A DNA stretch of 64,000 nt, from positions 2,816,001 to 2,880,000 of the forward strand of contig OY764159.1 of assembly GCA_963668175.1 (NCBI GenBank). Reading direction: 5' to 3'. A model generated the notes under the pieces. The model saw nothing but the letters and a program-made list of their open reading frames with translations. It was not told the origin of the DNA and did no database searches. The translations under genes and the position numbers were made by a program. Positions 5,257-48,827 of the stretch are shown here, one piece after another (position 1 is the first letter of the stretch; each line of letters starts with the position of its first letter). The stretch is from Syntrophales bacterium (GTDB lineage Bacteria > Desulfobacterota > Syntrophia > Syntrophales > PHBD01).

Positions 5257-6603
5257 TCACCCCGCCTTTGCCATCTCCTTCAATTCGCGGTACATCTCGT
5301 AGGTGAGAGTGTCCGACCGGCAGGGCAGGAGCGTGTTGTTGTGCCATAAGGGCTCGCCTGCGATGTCGTAGGGCGACGTCCGTACCGATTCGTCCCAGAG
5401 GGCCGTCCCCGGGATGGGCGAATATTCGGCGATGACGGGCTTCGCCCCGCACGCCTTGACGAAACGGATGCTCCCGGCGACCTCTTCCGCCGTCTGGCCC
5501 GGCAGACCGCAGATAAGGTAGATGCCGATCTCTTCCTGTTTGTAGCCTGCCTCGTGGAGATACCGGCAGGCGGCCTCCAGGTGTTCGTTCCTCACCTTCC
5601 CCCCCGTCTCCTTCTGCCTTTTCGCGTCCGACGTCTCGAAGCCGAACCGGATCGTCTCGAAGCCCGAACGGCGCATGAGAAGGGCCGTATTTTGATCGAT
5701 CCGGTTGAGGTGCAGGCCGTTGGGGCAGTGAAACCTAACGTCGAGTTTACGGCGGATTATTTCCTCTGTAAGGGGGATGAACATGCCCTCCGGATCGGCG
5801 AGGAGCGCATCGTCGTAGAACGAGTAGTGCCGGACGCCCAGGGTATTCCGCCAGTGTTCGATTTCGTCGGCCACCCGGACCGGGTCGCGCCGGCGGAAGC
5901 CGGGGTTCAACAGGTGCGACGCGCAGTAGGTGCAGTTGTATGGGCAGCCCCGCGTCGTGAGGATGGGTAACTGCTCCGGCCGGTTCAGAAGGTCGAAGGC
6001 GGGGTAGGGCAGGGAGTCGGGTCGATCCAGGTCCGGCTCGTATTCGATTCCGCCGCCCAATATCTCGACGATCAGCTTTCGCCATGCCGTTTCCGCCCTT
6101 TCGGCGAAGACAAAGTCCGCCCCGGAGCGTTTCGCGTGATCCGGGCACAGGGCCGGGTAATGCCCCCCGAGGACGACGGGGACACCCGGGAATATCTTCT
6201 TCGCCTCTTCGATTGCCTCCCATACTCCTGGATACCAGTACGTCATCATGGACGTCACGAGGATATGGCCCGGCTTTTTGATGCCTTCCAGGGCCTCCCG
6301 GAACACCTCCGGTCTTATCCCGTACCTGTTGTATTTTCTCGGGACCCCCGAAAGAGGGTAGGGCTTTTCGATGGCCTCCTTGTGGAACTGCCCCTGTCCG
6401 GCTCCTTTCCTCTTTGGAGATTTGACGCCTCCCCGATTTTGCATGAGCGGGTGGTTCGGGTCCAGGCAGTCCAGGTACGAGATACGGTATCCGTTTTTAC
6501 GCAGGTAAGAGGCGAGGTAGAGGAGCCCCAGCGGCTTGATCCAGAAATCGTACGCCGCAAAGTCGTGAATCCACGGGTTGACGAGTAGAATTTGATCCTT
6601 CAT
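5257..6603 (-). CDS. B12-binding domain radical SAM protein
   Basis: N-terminal cobalamin-binding-like region (KPLGLLYLASYL, VVLGGHY), TRGCPYNCTYC motif, YDDAL and FGFET. Confidence 0.9.
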   Translation of the reverse strand: MKDQILLVNPWIHDFAAYDFWIKPLGLLYLASYLRKNGYRISYLDCLDPNHPLMQNRGGVKSPKRKGAGQGQFHKEAIEKPYPLSGVPRKYNRYGIRPEVFREALEGIKKPGHILVTSMMTYWYPGVWEAIEEAKKIFPGVPVVLGGHYPALCPDHAKRSGADFVFAERAETAWRKLIVEILGGGIEYEPDLDRPDSLPYPAFDLLNRPEQLPILTTRGCPYNCTYCASHLLNPGFRRRDPVRVADEIEHWRNTLGVRHYSFYDDALLADPEGMFIPLTEEIIRRKLDVRFHCPNGLHLNRIDQNTALLMRRSGFETIRFGFETSDAKRQKETGGKVRNEHLEAACRYLHEAGYKQEEIGIYLICGLPGQTAEEVAGSIRFVKACGAKPVIAEYSPIPGTALWDESVRTSPYDIAGEPLWHNNTLLPCRSDTLTYEMYRELKEMAKAG

Positions 6604-19918: not shown

Positions 19919-20509
19919 TTATTTACGGAACATCTTTCTTGCAACTGCCGCACCGGCCAGCCCGAGGCCGAGGAGAATCATGGTTGCCGGTTCGGGAACG
20001 GCGTTCGCCGGGTTCAGGTCATGCGTCGTAAAGGTGTAATTGTCCCCGTTGTTCAGGGGGGAACCGTGGGTGCTGGCGCCGTGTGTGCCGCCGTCGTACG
20101 TGACCGTCGTCCAGTCGATCAACACGTCGTTATTGTAGGCGTAGAACTCAAAGCTGAACGGCGTGCCGGCGTAACTCGGATCGATCCATAACCACCATGC
20201 CATGATATCCGTCGTGCTGCCCGTGGCGGTTACGATTTTACCCGAGGCATCCATGTTGACGCTCCAGGTTGGAAATACAGTGGCAAGGTTGTACGCCGTG
20301 CCGTAGATATCGATCGCGCTCTGGGTATAATCGGATCGAAGCTCCATACCCGGGCTGACAAATAATGCAACCGACGAAGTCTGGACCATTTTATTGAAGG
20401 GTCCCATGCCCCATTCGGCCATCAAAATGCCTTCCGCGAACGCACTGGAAGCCGTCATCAGGAAGAGAAACGCAAAAACAGCTGTTAACATCTTGAATTT
20501 CTTAATCAT
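19919..20509 (-). CDS. PEP-CTERM sorting domain protein 1
   Basis: Signal peptide; C-terminus VPEPATMILLGLGLAGAAVARKMFRK. Confidence 0.93.
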   Translation of the reverse strand: MIKKFKMLTAVFAFLFLMTASSAFAEGILMAEWGMGPFNKMVQTSSVALFVSPGMELRSDYTQSAIDIYGTAYNLATVFPTWSVNMDASGKIVTATGSTTDIMAWWLWIDPSYAGTPFSFEFYAYNNDVLIDWTTVTYDGGTHGASTHGSPLNNGDNYTFTTHDLNPANAVPEPATMILLGLGLAGAAVARKMFRK

Positions 20510-25907: not shown

Positions 25908-26495
25908 TTATTTGCGGAACTTCTTTCGTACGACCGCAATACCGGCCAGCCCGAGGCCGAGGAGCATCATGGTCGCCGGTTCGGGAACGGCGTTGGCCTG
26001 CGGCGTGAGCGAGAAATCGACAGAACCAACGTACAATTGGGTATATTGCCCATCTATAGTATCCCAGCCGTTCCAAAGGTACATGCCGTATTTCCCCTCG
26101 CTGTACCAGAAATTCAAGTAGATATCGCCGGTGTTAAACATCAGTCCCCAGTTATCGAGATACGGCTGGGAGCCGTAAAACAGATTATTGTAGTCCATGA
26201 CAAGGTTTCCTCCGCCGGGGGGAACAACTTCCCAATGGGTAGCCGGAACCGAGCCGTCCGCCAATCTGATTGCAAGCGTTCCCAGCCCATTGATCGTGGC
26301 GGAACCGGATGTGATCAGGAAGGTCCCGCCGCCCTGGTCGGTGCCATTTATCGTTCCACTGCCGCTGGCGATTAACGTTCCGATGTCGCCGGTGTGGCCC
26401 GCGTTGGAAAACGTAAAGCTGAACTGTTCCGCTCCCGCCTGACCTACGCACATGAACAAAAGAGCCAATACGAAAAATATTTTAATGCTTTTCAA
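25908..26495 (-). CDS. PEP-CTERM sorting domain protein 2
   Basis: TTG start after RBS GAGGAGG; signal peptide; VPEPATMMLLGLGLAGIAVVRKKFRK. Confidence 0.92.
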   Translation of the reverse strand: MKSIKIFFVLALLFMCVGQAGAEQFSFTFSNAGHTGDIGTLIASGSGTINGTDQGGGTFLITSGSATINGLGTLAIRLADGSVPATHWEVVPPGGGNLVMDYNNLFYGSQPYLDNWGLMFNTGDIYLNFWYSEGKYGMYLWNGWDTIDGQYTQLYVGSVDFSLTPQANAVPEPATMMLLGLGLAGIAVVRKKFRK

Positions 26496-26560
26496 AATCG
26501 TCCCCTCCTCGGTCGAATGATTTCTGCCCCTCACCGGCAGGTTTTATATGATTTCTTCTC

Positions 26561-41666: not shown

Positions 41667-42719
41667 TTACGTCTGATCGAACCAGCACTGGGGGTCGTCG
41701 CCGAAGAGATCCCCCGAATGGGCGTAGGCGATGGCCCGGCAGCCCCGGCAATAGCGCCAGCGCACACAGGCGCCGCATTTGCCCTTGTAGTTTCCCCTCT
41801 CGCGCAGTTGCCGGAGTATTTTCGAAGACGACCAGATATGGCGGAGCGACGATCGGCGAATGTTGCCGATCCTGACCCCGATGCGGCGGCAGGGCATGAC
41901 GGAGCCGTCGCTCGTAATCGTGACGCCGAGGACGCCCGCGCTGCATCCCGAAAGTGCCCCGCCGTCCCCCTCTTCCATGGCGTCGTCCCCGCAGAGGCGG
42001 GCCAGGGGATCGCCGGAGGCGGCCTCGAAGTCAGGGCCGTCGAGCGTCCGGATCTTTTTGTAGGCGGCCTCTATCTCCCGCGGGGAAAGCAGGCTGTCCG
42101 CCATGCCCTTCCCTCTCCCGCAGGGAACGAGGCGCGAAAAACCGATGCCGGAAAATCCCATGTTCTTCGCTATGGCGGCCGTCTCCTCGATGCGTCCGAT
42201 ATTGGCGGCCGACAGGGTCATGTTGGCGCTCACGCTGTTGCCCGCCTCGACGAGAAGACGGGCGCCCTTCATGGCCGCCTCGAAGCTCCCGCGCCCGCGG
42301 ACGGCGTCGTGGACGTCCGGGGGCCCCTCCAGGCTGACCTGGATGTCCTTGAGGCCCGCGGCCTTCGCGCTTGCGGCATCGCCGCCCGTCACGAGCATGC
42401 CGTTCGTCAGGAGGGCCACCCGGAATCCCTTCTCTCCCGCATGGCCGACGACGTCCCACAGGCCTCCGTAAAGAAAGGGCTCGCCGCCGGTGAAATGAAT
42501 CGACGGGGACAGGGATATGCCGTACTCACGGGCCCAGGCCTGCAACATCCCTGCGGCCCCGTCGATCTCTCTTTTCACGTCACGGGCATCCATCTCCTCC
42601 GGAATCTTCCGCCCCTGGTAGCAATGGCGGCAGCGGAGATTGCACCTTTCGGTGAGATGCCACTGGATAAAAAAATCGAATGTCGTCGTTGCCGGACCGG
42701 CAACTATTTGCCCTTTCAC
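41667..42719 (-). CDS. Radical SAM/SPASM domain protein, probable peptide maturase
   Basis: CNLRCRHC, TGGEP and SPASM C...C...CxxC...CxxC...C motifs. Probable GTG start at 42719 overlapping the peptide ORF; alternative start 42737. Confidence 0.92.
   Translation of the reverse strand: MKGQIVAGPATTTFDFFIQWHLTERCNLRCRHCYQGRKIPEEMDARDVKREIDGAAGMLQAWAREYGISLSPSIHFTGGEPFLYGGLWDVVGHAGEKGFRVALLTNGMLVTGGDAASAKAAGLKDIQVSLEGPPDVHDAVRGRGSFEAAMKGARLLVEAGNSVSANMTLSAANIGRIEETAAIAKNMGFSGIGFSRLVPCGRGKGMADSLLSPREIEAAYKKIRTLDGPDFEAASGDPLARLCGDDAMEEGDGGALSGCSAGVLGVTITSDGSVMPCRRIGVRIGNIRRSSLRHIWSSSKILRQLRERGNYKGKCGACVRWRYCRGCRAIAYAHSGDLFGDDPQCWFDQT
42688..42704 (-). promoter_or_regulatory. SECIS-like hairpin
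   Basis: Minus strand GTTGCCGGTCCGGCAAC begins 11 nt after the second UGA and 20 nt after the first. It resembles the E. coli fdhF SECIS GGUUGCAGGUCUGCACC. Confidence 0.6.
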
Positions 42720-42832
42720 TTCTTTCAGCTGTAGCACGATTTGCCGGAGTCCGCGGACTTCATCATCAGCCAGAAGGCCTTTTCCCGGCTCTTGGCAATC
42801 TTGCTCAGCTCTTTTCTCCTGAGAGTCCTCAT
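42704..42832 (-). CDS. Unannotated RiPP-like precursor peptide, candidate selenopeptide: MRTLRRKELSKIAKSREKAFWLMMKSADSGKSCYS(U)KK(U)KGK
   Basis: Strong RBS AAGGAGGTGA; ATG at 42832. In-frame TGA at 42727-42725 and 42718-42716, TAG at 42706-42704. Directly upstream of the rSAM/SPASM gene. Confidence 0.7.
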
Positions 42833-43047
42833 CCTGTCACCTCCTTTCCGTGAAAGTGGGCCCGGGTCCCGTAAAACTTACGCGATGCCGCCGGAAGGCA
42901 TACACATCGCAAGGCCTTCATGTTTTATAGGATCGCCGCCACAAGAGCGTCTTTATCGCTTTACGGCAATGCGCCTTTTCCCCAGCTTATGAACGGTCGG
43001 TCGGTGTGGGTACGTTAACGTTTGCGCTTACGTCTTGACGGCGCGGC

Positions 43048-45086: not shown

Positions 45087-48000
45087 TCACCTTGTCTTCC
45101 CGATGGGGAAGTTAGCTCCCGTCTGGATCGTAGGCGTCTGCTGCCGTTTGAAGACCTCCTCGGAAAGCCTCAGGACCTCGCCTTCCACGTAGTCCGCCAG
45201 GCCCAGGACGGTGATATAGCCGTCGTTCTTGATATCCGCCTTGCCCTTCAGGCCCTCGATGAGGACGTAGGTGAAGAGGCCGTGACCCTTGTATCCTTCG
45301 AGCGCGAGTTGCGTGTCGGACGACGCCGAGAAGACCGCCGAGCCGATGGCCCTCTGCAGGAGCTTGACCGCCGTCGCGTCGGTGAGGCCGCGCGTCTGCT
45401 GAAGAAGCGCCACCTGGATCTCCTTCCCGCCTTTGCCGGCGTTGCAGGTATCCAGGACGACGACCTTCTTCTGGGCGGGGATGCCGCCGATGAGCCCGGC
45501 AAGCTCTTTCTGGCTGATGGCGTCCCGGCCGAGATGGCGCGACGAAAGCAGAAAGACGTTGCTCGTCAGGAGAAAGTATTGCTCCTCGTTGTCCACGACG
45601 TCCACGACGCCGTGGGAGGCATCGTAGAATACGAAGAGGTCGTTGGGCTTGACTTTCGCACGCATCCCGGCAAAGGCCTTGCCGATGGCCTCCCTGGTCG
45701 TTTCGGCAGGCGTTGCGAGGACCCGGACGTCGACTCCCGCGAAGAGTGGCGACGCCGTTTTCTTCAGCGCCTCGGCAAAGGCCCTGGCGTCCGACACGGC
45801 ATAATTGAGTGAGATGGACTTGTTCTTGTATTCGTTGATGCCGATCACCAGGGCATGGAGATTCGGCTTATCCATCGCCGCACGGGAATTGACCGAAACC
45901 TCCGCAGGGACGGACTCCATGGAGTTGTCCCTGTTGAAGGCGATCGCCCGTATGTCGTTCCGGCCTTCCAAGAGCGGCACGGTGAACGAGAACGCCTGTT
46001 CTCCGGGCGCGGTCTTGCCCTTCACGGCCACCGCCCGCGTTTCGTTCGCCACCTGCGCCCCGTTGATATGGATCATGACGTTTCCGATGCCGCCCCCGTT
46101 GTCGGCGACGCGCACGGTAACCGTGACGCTGCTTCCGGAGACGGAGATTCCCGGCGCAGGGGATGCGATACGGACGGACGGGGCGGGCTTGCTCGCCAGG
46201 ATGTCGCCGAGGGTCTCGCCCTTGGGGATGTTCCTGCCGGCGAGGGCCAACTGCACAAGTTCGGGGCGGTAGAATTTCGAATAGAACTGGTCGACGCCGT
46301 AGACGCGGTTGCCGACCCGGACGTTCAGATACTTCGCGCCGTTCGCCGACGCGTTGAAGTAGCCTTCCGGCGTGATGACGACCCACTCGCCGTCCGTGAA
46401 GCTTAAGAACTTCGCCCTCTCTCTCCCCGTGGCTGCATCCCATGAACGGATCGTATTATCGCTCGATGCGGACAACACCCGCTTCCCGTCCCGCGACAGG
46501 GATGCGGTCCGCACCCAGTTCTCGTGCCCGGCGAATGTCGTGACGATTCGTCCGTCGTCCGTATCCCAAAGTCTGAACGCTTCTTCCGCCCCCGTCGAAA
46601 CGAATCTGTCCCCGCGGACGGAGAATTCCAGGTCGTAGACGATGTCCCTCTGTCCGACGAATCGCTTTATGACCGCACCGGTGGCGGTGTCGGCCAGGAC
46701 GATGGTCTTGTTGTCGCCGGGAAAGAGGATTCGCCCGCCGTCCGGGGAAAAGGCGAAGGCGAGCCCTACCACGGCCGCATAGCACTTCACCGCCAGGACT
46801 TCCTTGCCCGCGTCGAAGTTATACAATCTCAGGGTATAATGCTCAAGCGTTTCGCCTTGCACGGCAACGGCGACGGACTTCCCGTCCGGCGAGAGGGCGA
46901 CGCTGTGGCGGTAAGGTTCCGTCCAGCGGAACGTATCTTTCCGTCCCGTGGCCGTATCGATGCGCGTGGCCGTCTTTTCCGCCACGCTCAGCAGGTGTCG
47001 GTTGTTCTCCGCCAGCATGAAAGAAACGATCTTCCCGGCGGGTTCCGTGTACGTCATGATCTCCCTTCCCGTGGCGATCTCTTTCACCCTGAGCGTCCGA
47101 TCGTCGACGCGTTCCGTCGCATACCGGCCGTCCCGGGAGAAATGCGCGACGGATGCCTTATAAATCGTCTTCCCGGCGGCCACGTCCCACAGTTCCCTGG
47201 TCTTGTCCTCGCTGATCAATTGGAGATATTTCCCGTCGGCGGTGAAGCGCAGCACGCTCGTATAGCCTTCCAGCACCTTGAGGGGCTTCCCGTTTTTGAT
47301 GTCCCAGACCAGGGGGGATTTCTCCGTGTTGACGACGGCCTTGTCGCCGTCGGGACCGAGCGACGCCGAATAAATAACCGTCAACGGACGTCTCGCGAAT
47401 GCCTGTCCCCAGCGGCCGTCGGCGATATCCCAGAGGGTGGGAACATATCGTCCCGTGAAGATGACGGACCTGCCGTCCGGCGAAAAAGCTGCGCCATCGG
47501 TATGGCTTGTCGTGATGGTCGTCAATTCCTTACCCGTCATGGCGTCCCACAACCTTGCGCCCGCCGGCCCCACGGCAATCGCCTTTTTGCCGTCGGGAGA
47601 GAGGGCGATCCGGCGGAATTCCGGCTTTTCGTTCACATTCCAGGAAGAGACAATCTTTCCCTCCCTGATATCGACCATTTCGAACACTAGGCGCTTGGCA
47701 TTGTAATCGTTCTTCAGGAAAAGGCCGTACCGGCCGTCCCGGGACAGGGAGACCGCCGCAAACAGATCGATGCGATTCGTCTCGAACACGGCAACCGCCT
47801 TGCCCGACGTCGATTCCACGACATCGTACTTATCGTGTCCGGTCTCGGCCACAAGGTGCGTTTCGCCCGCGGCGAGCCTGCTGTAACCCCTGACTTTCGA
47901 CACCGTCCTGAGAACCCGTCCGGTGGCAACCTCCCAGACGTTCAGGGTGCCGCCGTCCATGTCCACGGAGGCGACGGTGTGCCCGTCGGGGGAGAACGCG

Positions 48001-48416
48001 AGGAACGTGATGTCGCGATGCCTGCCGGTCGTGGCCATGGTCGTGAGCACCTTTCCCGTAGCGGTGTCCCAGACCTTGATGATCCCCTTCTCGTCGCCCG
48101 AAGCGATCTGTTCGCCGCGGGCGGAGACGGCTACTGCGCCGGTCCTCGCACCTTGGCCGGCGAACGTCCTTATCTCCGCGCCGGACGCGACATCCCAGAG
48201 TTTGACGACATTGTCGTCGCTTCCCGTCGCCAGAAACCTGCCGTCGCCCGAAAAAGCGGCGGCGGTAACACCCGCCTGATGCCCCAGCTGGACGAATATC
48301 TCCGGCTTTTCGGCGCCGCAGGCCGCGCCGGCCGAAAGCCCGCAGACGACTACCGCGGAAAGCAATACTTTGTGAACCGTTGTCCTTATGCCTGATTTTA
48401 TATGATTGTTTTTCAT
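45087..48416 (-). CDS. Secreted WD40-repeat protein with C-terminal caspase-like (peptidase C14) domain
   Basis: Signal-like N-terminus, many WD40 repeats, LVIGINEY, ASHG (His) and LDTCNAG (Cys). Confidence 0.9.
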   Translation of the reverse strand: MKNNHIKSGIRTTVHKVLLSAVVVCGLSAGAACGAEKPEIFVQLGHQAGVTAAAFSGDGRFLATGSDDNVVKLWDVASGAEIRTFAGQGARTGAVAVSARGEQIASGDEKGIIKVWDTATGKVLTTMATTGRHRDITFLAFSPDGHTVASVDMDGGTLNVWEVATGRVLRTVSKVRGYSRLAAGETHLVAETGHDKYDVVESTSGKAVAVFETNRIDLFAAVSLSRDGRYGLFLKNDYNAKRLVFEMVDIREGKIVSSWNVNEKPEFRRIALSPDGKKAIAVGPAGARLWDAMTGKELTTITTSHTDGAAFSPDGRSVIFTGRYVPTLWDIADGRWGQAFARRPLTVIYSASLGPDGDKAVVNTEKSPLVWDIKNGKPLKVLEGYTSVLRFTADGKYLQLISEDKTRELWDVAAGKTIYKASVAHFSRDGRYATERVDDRTLRVKEIATGREIMTYTEPAGKIVSFMLAENNRHLLSVAEKTATRIDTATGRKDTFRWTEPYRHSVALSPDGKSVAVAVQGETLEHYTLRLYNFDAGKEVLAVKCYAAVVGLAFAFSPDGGRILFPGDNKTIVLADTATGAVIKRFVGQRDIVYDLEFSVRGDRFVSTGAEEAFRLWDTDDGRIVTTFAGHENWVRTASLSRDGKRVLSASSDNTIRSWDAATGRERAKFLSFTDGEWVVITPEGYFNASANGAKYLNVRVGNRVYGVDQFYSKFYRPELVQLALAGRNIPKGETLGDILASKPAPSVRIASPAPGISVSGSSVTVTVRVADNGGGIGNVMIHINGAQVANETRAVAVKGKTAPGEQAFSFTVPLLEGRNDIRAIAFNRDNSMESVPAEVSVNSRAAMDKPNLHALVIGINEYKNKSISLNYAVSDARAFAEALKKTASPLFAGVDVRVLATPAETTREAIGKAFAGMRAKVKPNDLFVFYDASHGVVDVVDNEEQYFLLTSNVFLLSSRHLGRDAISQKELAGLIGGIPAQKKVVVLDTCNAGKGGKEIQVALLQQTRGLTDATAVKLLQRAIGSAVFSASSDTQLALEGYKGHGLFTYVLIEGLKGKADIKNDGYITVLGLADYVEGEVLRLSEEVFKRQQTPTIQTGANFPIGKTR

Positions 48417-48827
48417 CTCGCTCCTGTACATAGACCTATGCCTGTCATTGAATGAACGATATCCCAATACACGCGCACGGATAAGCTTCCGGAACAGATG
48501 CTCCCGTGACGGCGCGTCAGTTTAACACACAAATCTCTTCAGCCTTCCATGCAGCTTTGAGAAAATATTGTAAAATAATGTGAAGACAAAGTGTACTGAA
48601 TTTTACGCCGCACCGGTTCGTCCGTACGAAATCGTTGAAGGAACCTGACTCGACAAGGGATTTTTCCTCAGCTAGTCCGGCATCTTACACGATTCTTGCC
48701 GGGAGATTGGAAACGAGATGGCGGGATAGCCGTTTAGACGCGGCGGGAAATACGACCATCTGTCTCCGGAAGTGTTGATATAAGGAATATCGGAGGAAGG
48801 ATGAAAGGGCGCCGTTGTTTGTTGCAC

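Follow-up and report, generated by a model that had tools for sequence, protein, structure and literature searches.

Within 64,000 nt of the genome of a Syntrophales bacterium (Bacteria; Desulfobacterota; Syntrophia; Syntrophales; PHBD01; assembly GCA_963668175.1), a stretch at forward-strand positions 2,816,001 to 2,880,000 of contig OY764159.1 that we call the window and to which all coordinates below refer, we describe what is probably a two-gene cassette joining a selenocysteine (Sec or U)-recoded ribosomal peptide to a dedicated radical SAM/SPASM enzyme that acts on the Cys/Sec core of the peptide. The cassette is real, of the selenopeptide and radical SAM/SPASM kind, and apparently undescribed before now. 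Our case is built on comparison between genomes and not on the window alone, and it is this comparison that brings out the peptide frame, its in-frame UGA codons, a hairpin behind them resembling a selenocysteine insertion sequence (SECIS), and strict pairing with the enzyme gene. The elements of the cassette in the window are the following.

42837..42846, minus strand: ribosome-binding (Shine-Dalgarno) site AAGGAGGTGA, 7 nt ahead of the ATG of the peptide gene
42707..42832, minus strand: predicted peptide gene, 42 codons with both TGAs read as Sec (35 residues under translation table 11), ATG at 42832-42830
within 42707..42832, minus strand: leader, residues 1-32, and core, C33-Y-S-U36-K-K-U39-K-G-K
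42734..42736, minus strand: TGC codon of Cys33
42725..42727, minus strand: first in-frame TGA (U36)
42716..42718, minus strand: second in-frame TGA (U39), 19 nt upstream of the hairpin loop G
42704..42706, minus strand: TAG, terminal stop of the recoded peptide, its G being the first hairpin base
42688..42704, minus strand: SECIS-like hairpin GTTGCCGGTCCGGCAAC, 6-7 bp stem, G-U in the loop, loop G at 42697
41667..42737, minus strand: radical SAM/SPASM enzyme gene, start uncertain (GTG 42737 or GTG 42719)

Read with TGA as U, the peptide gene translates to MRTLRRKELSKIAKSREKAFWLMMKSADSGKSCYSUKKUKGK, while its table-11 open reading frame (ORF) spans 42832..42725 and encodes 35 residues, the sequence before the first TGA being MRTLRRKELSKIAKSREKAFWLMMKSADSGKSCYS. 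The original prediction had described a hidden ORF with a strong ribosome-binding site, TGAs 3 and 6 codons past Cys33 followed by TAG, a hairpin 11 nt behind the second TGA and 20 nt behind the first, and a radical SAM/SPASM gene overlapping the end of the peptide. As a sequence feature this is confirmed at every coordinate: AAGGAGGTGA at 42846-42837 precedes the ATG at 42832, both TGAs and the TAG lie in frame on the minus strand, the two spacings are as described, and the enzyme ORF at 41667..42737 offers GTG 42719 as a start candidate. The core pattern TGY-N6-TGAAR-N4-TGAAAR occurs once in the 64-kb window, against 0.12 occurrences expected.

A search for related loci in a collection holding one genome per species matched 278 stretches, 267 of them encoding a relative, and the best 80 were kept. 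These loci span the Syntrophales and other Thermodesulfobacteriota, Nitrospirota, Chloroflexota/Dehalococcoidia, Syntrophorhabdaceae, Desulfobaccales and one Actinomycetota genome; one of them (L054) is without the 5' end of the gene, leaving 79 usable loci, and counts of start codons given out of 80 sequences comprise these 79 and the window. The anticipated conserved peptide upstream of radical SAM homologues was found in all 79 usable loci. In 76 of them, a leader and a C-x-x-(U/C)-x-x-U core stand directly upstream of the enzyme gene, and the three variants, L020 (N-x-x-C-x-x-U), L036 (C-x-x-U-x-x-TAA) and L050 (C-x-x-U-G-S-stop, a one-Sec form, ...LCRKUGS-stop, with its own hairpin behind), all retain the C-x-x-U unit. 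Of the 80 loci, 74 have a single copy of the core pattern, placed and oriented as in the window, and it recurs nowhere else in those. The first position is TGA in 74 of the 76 core loci and TGC in L033 and L035, as also in the variant L020; the second is TGA in 77 of the 78 loci that have it, the other (L036) carrying TAA. Five assemblies harbour two cassette copies each (L033/L036, L031/L034, L042/L045, L056/L063 on the same contig, and L059/L080); in the first of these pairs L033 has Cys at the first U and L036 has TAA at the second, and L036 may be a decaying copy.

The peptide frame behaves as a coding frame on both sides of the UGAs. A Shine-Dalgarno-like site and a start codon (ATG 61, GTG 7, TTG 7) precede it in 75 of 79 sequences, the other four being cut by contig ends, and among these 75 the frame closes with TAG (29), TAA (28) or TGA (18), never a sense codon, directly before or inside the hairpin. 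Across 46 gap-free sequences, all three bases of the second TGA are invariant, as are the T and G of the first, whose A is replaced by C (TGC) in three, while variability peaks at the base preceding each TGA (1.66 and 1.34 bits). The codon of Cys33 varies synonymously in the peptide frame (TGC 30, TGT 16), and the Lys codons behind each UGA alternate between AAA and AAG. Leader codons have a mean entropy of 0.76 bits at their first and 0.85 bits at their second position, rising to 1.06 bits at the third. Residue E17, both U positions and K40 are invariant among 68 distinct peptides, C33 and K37 are nearly so, and the leader carries a conserved (K)EA-x-FW motif. One of the signs by which a bacterial selenoprotein gene is recognised, a conserved in-frame UGA with coding signal beyond it, is present: both UGAs in 74 of 79 usable loci, synonymous Lys codons and a conserved stop.

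We considered and rejected the idea that the TGAs and the hairpin are by-products of a conserved enzyme N-terminus, in which the TGAs would be read as cTG-Aaa and gTG-Aaa and the hairpin as V-A-G-P-A-T. Enzyme coding sequence cannot explain the conservation, because in 26 of 80 sequences the enzyme cannot start until past the second UGA and the core is conserved nonetheless, and because a stop falls within the enzyme frame at the core region in seven loci (L027, L033, L035, L036, L039, L041 and L046). In the 46 gap-free sequences the wobble G of the enzyme-frame NTG codons is invariant, while peptide-frame wobble positions vary.

Database proteins show how the peptide has been annotated. A profile search of 1.84 billion proteins returned 63 matches at E up to 0.001, 57 of which finish at profile position 35, their own C-terminus, just before the first UGA; four (P0129, P0139, P0143 and P0164) have Cys at the first UGA and end at position 38, before the second; one (P0154) reads TGA as Trp and runs on through C-H-K-W-K-S-W-K-S-W; and one looks unrelated. 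The peptide is effectively invisible in databases because gene callers almost always end it at the first UGA. Entry P0154 spans three TGAs as Trp (…CHKWKSWKSW…), its source apparently having been called with a TGA=Trp code that masks a likely selenopeptide. A word-based search with the 42-residue peptide matched solely the window's own 35-residue form, and the ESM Atlas gave no usable match for the peptide. The earlier expectation that UGA would align with Cys in relatives stood for the first UGA, replaced by TGC in L033, L035 and L020 and by Cys in the four database proteins, the second UGA having no Cys counterpart in any relative. Where the first Cys is lost (L020, P0143 and P0164), the first U is Cys, so that one C-x-x-U unit is always kept.

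The hairpin is the second line of evidence. By itself it folds at -10.3 kcal/mol (z -3.0, with 1 of 200 shuffles equally good), within a surrounding 71-nt stretch that folds unremarkably (z -0.57). It follows the last UGA in 79 of 79 sequences, 9-19 nt behind the second UGA and 11 nt in 40 of them, and its loop nearly always contains G-U. On the 79-row alignment the 7-bp structure pairs 88.5% of cells, compared with 14-47% for slid partners, and both-side changes occur in five of the seven stem pairs (42 cells; matched by 0 of 500 shuffles), as a hairpin predicted to covary should show. RNAalifold likewise predicts the stem (-10.08 kcal/mol, four of six pairs compensatory) from 25 of the 79 sequences chosen as distinct and gap-free, a set that omits near-duplicates and the loci with a 4-nt loop (L065, L068, L069, L076 and L077). 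Some compensatory changes in the stem bring substitutions in the enzyme frame (Val/Ile with Thr/Ile). As a general rule, set out in section 15 of PMC4605307, bacterial SECIS elements have a 6-8 bp stem and a loop G about 20 nt past the UGA; the loop G in the window, 19 nt past the second UGA, is consistent with the geometry given in that section.

The partner gene encodes a radical SAM enzyme (PF04055, 76.5 bits against a cut-off of 29.5) with a SPASM domain (PF13186, 40.3 against 21.5). Among 25 sequences its CX3CX2C motif (C32, C36, C39) is invariant, as are eight further Cys (C206, C265, C283, C321, C324, C330, C333 and C351), a number that would suffice for two auxiliary 4Fe-4S clusters. 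There are 2189 homologue matches; the best of them are 60-78% identical and come largely from metagenome-assembled genomes of Syntrophales. Predicted N-termini of these homologues share MLQLKEVK-x-QIVAG-x-AT, the part MLQLKEVK-x-QIVAG being common to 24 homologous enzymes. Families were assigned by NCBIfam equivalog and Pfam cut-offs, and the enzyme reaches no NCBIfam equivalog cut-off, its scores falling short for GeoRSP (151.2/400), ACGX (150.9/400), MftC (130.8/265), PqqE (94.4/381), PapB (68/340), SkfB (59.7/300) and AlbA (57.7/850). The closest solved structures are SkfB (1.9e-21) and then PDB 5wgg (4.2e-17), which we take to be CteB, with anSME also among the nearest. The AlphaFold model has a mean predicted local distance difference test (pLDDT) score of 64 with the SPASM part poorly modelled, and it shows the overprinted residues 1-19 as disordered (pLDDT about 23-36). 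For the enzyme, the ESM Atlas returned only generic radical SAM/SPASM clusters.

The suggestion that this is a distinct family fits these results, since no SbtA/SbtM, ranthipeptide, sactipeptide, mycofactocin or PQQ model is matched above cut-off and none of the 68 peptides has a meaningful NCBIfam match. The nearest known counterpart is SbtA/SbtM ('selenobiotic' or 'selenobacteriocin'; TIGR04081/TIGR04082), which, according to PMC9204691, makes a thio(seleno)oxazole from Cys/Sec of a natural Sec peptide. Like the cassette, it pairs a short ribosomal peptide having at least two Sec and a SECIS with an adjacent radical SAM/SPASM gene, and is found in deltaproteobacterial anaerobes (PMC9204691; PMC13188914, Table 1). 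In contrast, the SbtA core is GGUG/SGUG where that of the cassette is C-x-x-U-K-x-U-K, and TIGR04081 is unmatched by all 68 peptides at E up to 1. SbtM is also longer: the cassette enzyme scores 134.6 versus 350 bits with TIGR04082, aligns only to positions 199-515 of 516 and is without the N-terminal ~200 residues of the model. The range of the cassette is wider, extending over Syntrophales, Nitrospirota, Chloroflexota and one Actinomycetota locus.

Other radical SAM systems resemble one half of the cassette or the other. SCIFF peptides and their maturases (CteB, Tte1186) share its two-gene layout of a short peptide and a radical SAM/SPASM enzyme, the peptide being Cys-rich and ~45 residues long; they too are not accompanied by a conserved exporter or protease, and they are not known to have a function. 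The SCIFF peptide differs in carrying six Cys and, to our knowledge, no natural Sec; CteB carries an N-terminal leader-recognition (RRE) domain, unlike the cassette enzyme; and no SCIFF model appears among the best 25 of 79 NCBIfam matches for the enzyme, nor for any peptide. PapB, SkfB and AlbA are radical SAM/SPASM enzymes that join Cys sulfur to carbon, and the cassette enzyme lies far below their cut-offs; we know of no natural Sec in the PapA/PapB ranthipeptide or SkfB/AlbA sactipeptide systems, and ranthipeptide and sactipeptide systems are usually accompanied by transporters and proteases. AhbD and NirJ are similar to the cassette enzyme in length, in having no RRE domain and in giving its highest hidden Markov model (HMM) scores, yet as far as we know they act on tetrapyrroles with no partner peptide, whereas a peptide gene lies beside the cassette enzyme in 79 of 79 usable loci. 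In MftA/MftC and PqqA/PqqE, a radical SAM/SPASM enzyme modifies C-terminal residues of a short peptide on the way to an intracellular redox cofactor, which makes mycofactocin and PQQ the closest functional analogy for a cassette with no exporter. Both systems depend on a PqqD-type chaperone and on additional enzymes, none of which is conserved around the cassette loci.

We infer selenocysteine insertion, action of the enzyme on the peptide, the chemistry and the cellular role as follows. The first gene would give a peptide of ~42 residues, whose leader is basic and probably forms a helix and whose C-terminus is the core C-x-x-U-K-x-U-K, the two in-frame UGAs being decoded as selenocysteine under the direction of a SelB-type SECIS hairpin just past the peptide stop, its loop G 19 nt beyond the second UGA. 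The second gene, starting over or closely behind the first, would give a radical SAM enzyme whose SPASM domain is complete and holds two auxiliary Fe-S clusters, its most likely target being the Cys/Sec core. If it works as other peptide-modifying SPASM enzymes do, an auxiliary cluster may be bound by a selenolate or thiolate, after which the 5'-deoxyadenosyl radical would abstract a hydrogen atom to yield an Se-C or S-C cross-link or oxidation of the Sec side chain. Such chemistry is plausible from the precedents of SbtM and of PapB and Tte1186: according to PMC10177961, PapB and Tte1186 bind Sec-substituted peptides through Se-Fe at an auxiliary cluster (auxiliary cluster 1 in Tte1186) and form selenoethers. 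Because no exporter or protease is conserved, the product probably stays intracellular, being either a small selenopeptide with redox activity or metal binding or a molecule resembling a cofactor.

Several observations weigh against a selenopeptide modified by its neighbouring enzyme. With regard to recoding, the second UGA is never Cys in any relative (and is TAA in L036), and an all-Cys form is absent among the 63 profile matches. The 64-kb window holds no selA, selB or selD and no tRNA, its 50 ORFs include no sel genes or known selenoproteins, and the 80 loci contain no tRNA-Sec. With regard to the hairpin, one hairpin would have to serve two UGAs, and ~28 nt separate the first UGA from the loop G where ~20 is usual; the UGA-hairpin spacing differs between clades, from 9 to 19 nt; RNAalifold run on the full 79-row alignment predicts no pairs, the five 4-nt-loop rows being misaligned there; and Rfam, searched across the window at gathering threshold and near the site for SECIS families at E up to 10, yields nothing, which says little because bacterial SECIS elements are short. 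The stretch may double as enzyme N-terminus in 51 of 80 sequences, confounding conservation in these. With regard to the enzyme, its top HMM scores are for the tetrapyrrole enzymes AhbD (TIGR04545, 186/500) and NirJ2 (TIGR04055, 155.9/500), it has no RRE domain, and what suggests its contact with the peptide is gene pairing (79 of 79 usable loci).

The alternative that best survives, which we consider unlikely, is that the selenopeptide is real and the enzyme does not use it as substrate. The peptide would stand alone as a redox or metal-binding C-x-x-U partner, such as an electron or selenium donor or a chaperone, of a radical SAM/SPASM enzyme working on a small molecule such as a tetrapyrrole or quinone precursor. 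This alternative would account for each variant keeping one C-x-x-U, a classic redox motif (motif lists of PMC13188914, Table 1), for the AhbD and NirJ2 scores and the lack of an RRE domain, for the absence of a conserved protease or exporter, and for the menaquinone-pathway genes directly behind the cassette in Nitrospirota (L055, L073, L078, L080 and L059). The AhbD and NirJ2 scores are nonetheless far below cut-off, the nearest solved relatives are peptide maturases, and neighbouring genes vary between clades. A leader and C-terminal Cys/Sec core ahead of a SPASM gene is, moreover, the known layout of peptide-maturase pairs.

Overlap of the two genes invites a further reading. At 42688-42737 (minus strand) in the window, and in loci L001-L053, ~50 bases carry the peptide core, ~19 enzyme codons in another frame (a possibility in 51 of 80 sequences) and the SECIS stem, and candidate enzyme starts share bases with the Cys codon (ATGC/GTGC), with the second UGA (GTGA) or with the terminal stop (ATGA). 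The small ORF might be a selenium-sensing regulatory leader, in which read-through by Sec-tRNA and SelB opens the hairpin and couples translation of the enzyme, the peptide itself being functionless. Those overlapping start candidates, including ATGA in the 18 TGA-ending sequences, and the position of the hairpin on the enzyme start region in Syntrophales-type loci are what such a leader would predict. We nevertheless regard it as very improbable. In 10 loci (L056 (2270-2320), L063, L064, L065, L067, L068, L069, L070, L077 and L079) the two genes are separated by 77-230 nt, each locus having a separate long stem behind the hairpin, followed directly in four (L056, L063, L064 and L068) by a run of at least four T, and regulatory coupling cannot be general because of these loci. 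Leader residue E17, the FW motif and the core Lys are, in addition, conserved as amino acids across phyla. Since a separate long stem intervenes before the enzyme gene, the hairpin does not serve as terminator and the peptide can form a transcription unit by itself, which suggests a separately terminated or attenuated peptide transcript in the spaced loci.

Least credible of all is that the TGAs are ordinary stops of a 35-residue peptide ending C-Y-S, with the downstream conservation due to the enzyme N-terminus and an unrelated hairpin: the end of the table-11 ORF at 42725 and the MLQLKEVK-x-QIVAG start common to 24 homologous enzymes agree with it, but it is contradicted by the core and both TGAs being kept in the 26 of 80 sequences where enzyme coding is impossible, by the enzyme-frame stops in seven loci, by the invariant wobble G of each enzyme-frame NTG beside varying peptide-frame wobbles, by TGA-TGC exchange, by a stem that covaries despite its Val/Ile and Thr/Ile costs to the enzyme, and by the modelled disorder of enzyme residues 1-19.

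Around the recoded peptide and its enzyme, little else is conserved. By ORF clustering, the sole neighbour conserved with the peptide is the enzyme itself (picked up in 76 loci); a third conserved gene was sought across the loci and none was found, the next real neighbour cluster, an AmmeMemoRadiSam-type radical SAM protein, occurring in 12. The remaining neighbours are housekeeping genes that differ by clade. In the window a Zn-dependent alcohol dehydrogenase precedes the cassette and a 193-residue protein that belongs to no family follows it; together with the locus clustering, these bear out the earlier remark that no peptidase, transporter or RRE domain is adjacent.

Some clades have recurrent neighbours of their own. 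In the Nitrospirota locus L055 (1889-6307), genes for MqnE and MqnC and then a TrxB-like (thioredoxin-reductase-like) protein follow the cassette on the same strand; two MqnE/MqnC-like genes stand behind the cassette in L073, L078 and L080, and a single truncated one, at a contig end, in L059. MqnE and MqnC belong to the futalosine pathway of menaquinone synthesis. A Syntrophales subgroup of nine loci has genes for a MenA-like prenyltransferase and a DoxX protein two to three genes upstream on the opposite strand. A link of the cassette to quinone metabolism is possible, though unproven. In L027, L035, L039 and L041, a gene for a ~310-residue multiheme cytochrome c lies directly downstream of the enzyme gene, its product giving a weak ExtKL (seleno)protein match (67.9 versus 250 bits).

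Elsewhere on the minus strand of the window we noted a 1126-residue protein (45087-48467) with many WD40 beta-propeller repeats and a C-terminal Peptidase_C14 caspase domain of the EACC1-associated type, two ~200-residue proteins (19919-20509 and 25908-26534) with terminal PEP-CTERM sorting motifs, and a second radical SAM gene (5257-6603) of the B12-binding class, which reaches no NCBIfam cut-off, its best score being 84 versus 575 bits.

We found no description of the cassette in the full-text literature, a search that left subscription journals and supplementary files outside its reach, so that a prior description is possible; nor does such a peptide figure in the accessible parts of Table 1 of the 2026 selenoproteome review (PMC13188914). 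SbtA/SbtM was the one natural family of Sec peptides with a radical SAM enzyme to come up in full text and in the accessible parts of that review. The cassette would be a second, unrelated one, spread over at least four phyla and 267 matching stretches. Tentatively, and as a possibility we hold to be rather doubtful, it may make an undescribed intracellular selenopeptide product with cross-linked or heterocyclised Cys/Sec, widely conserved and serving as a redox cofactor or as a carrier of metal or selenium in anaerobes of these phyla, while the cassette acts as a selenium checkpoint: because the peptide core and the hairpin lie under the enzyme start region, the enzyme would be made only when Sec decoding succeeds. 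The cassette would offer a compact system for Se-C bond formation or Sec oxidation by SPASM enzymes, would be a case of one hairpin serving two UGAs, and would exemplify the overprinting of two genes and an RNA signal on one stretch of sequence.

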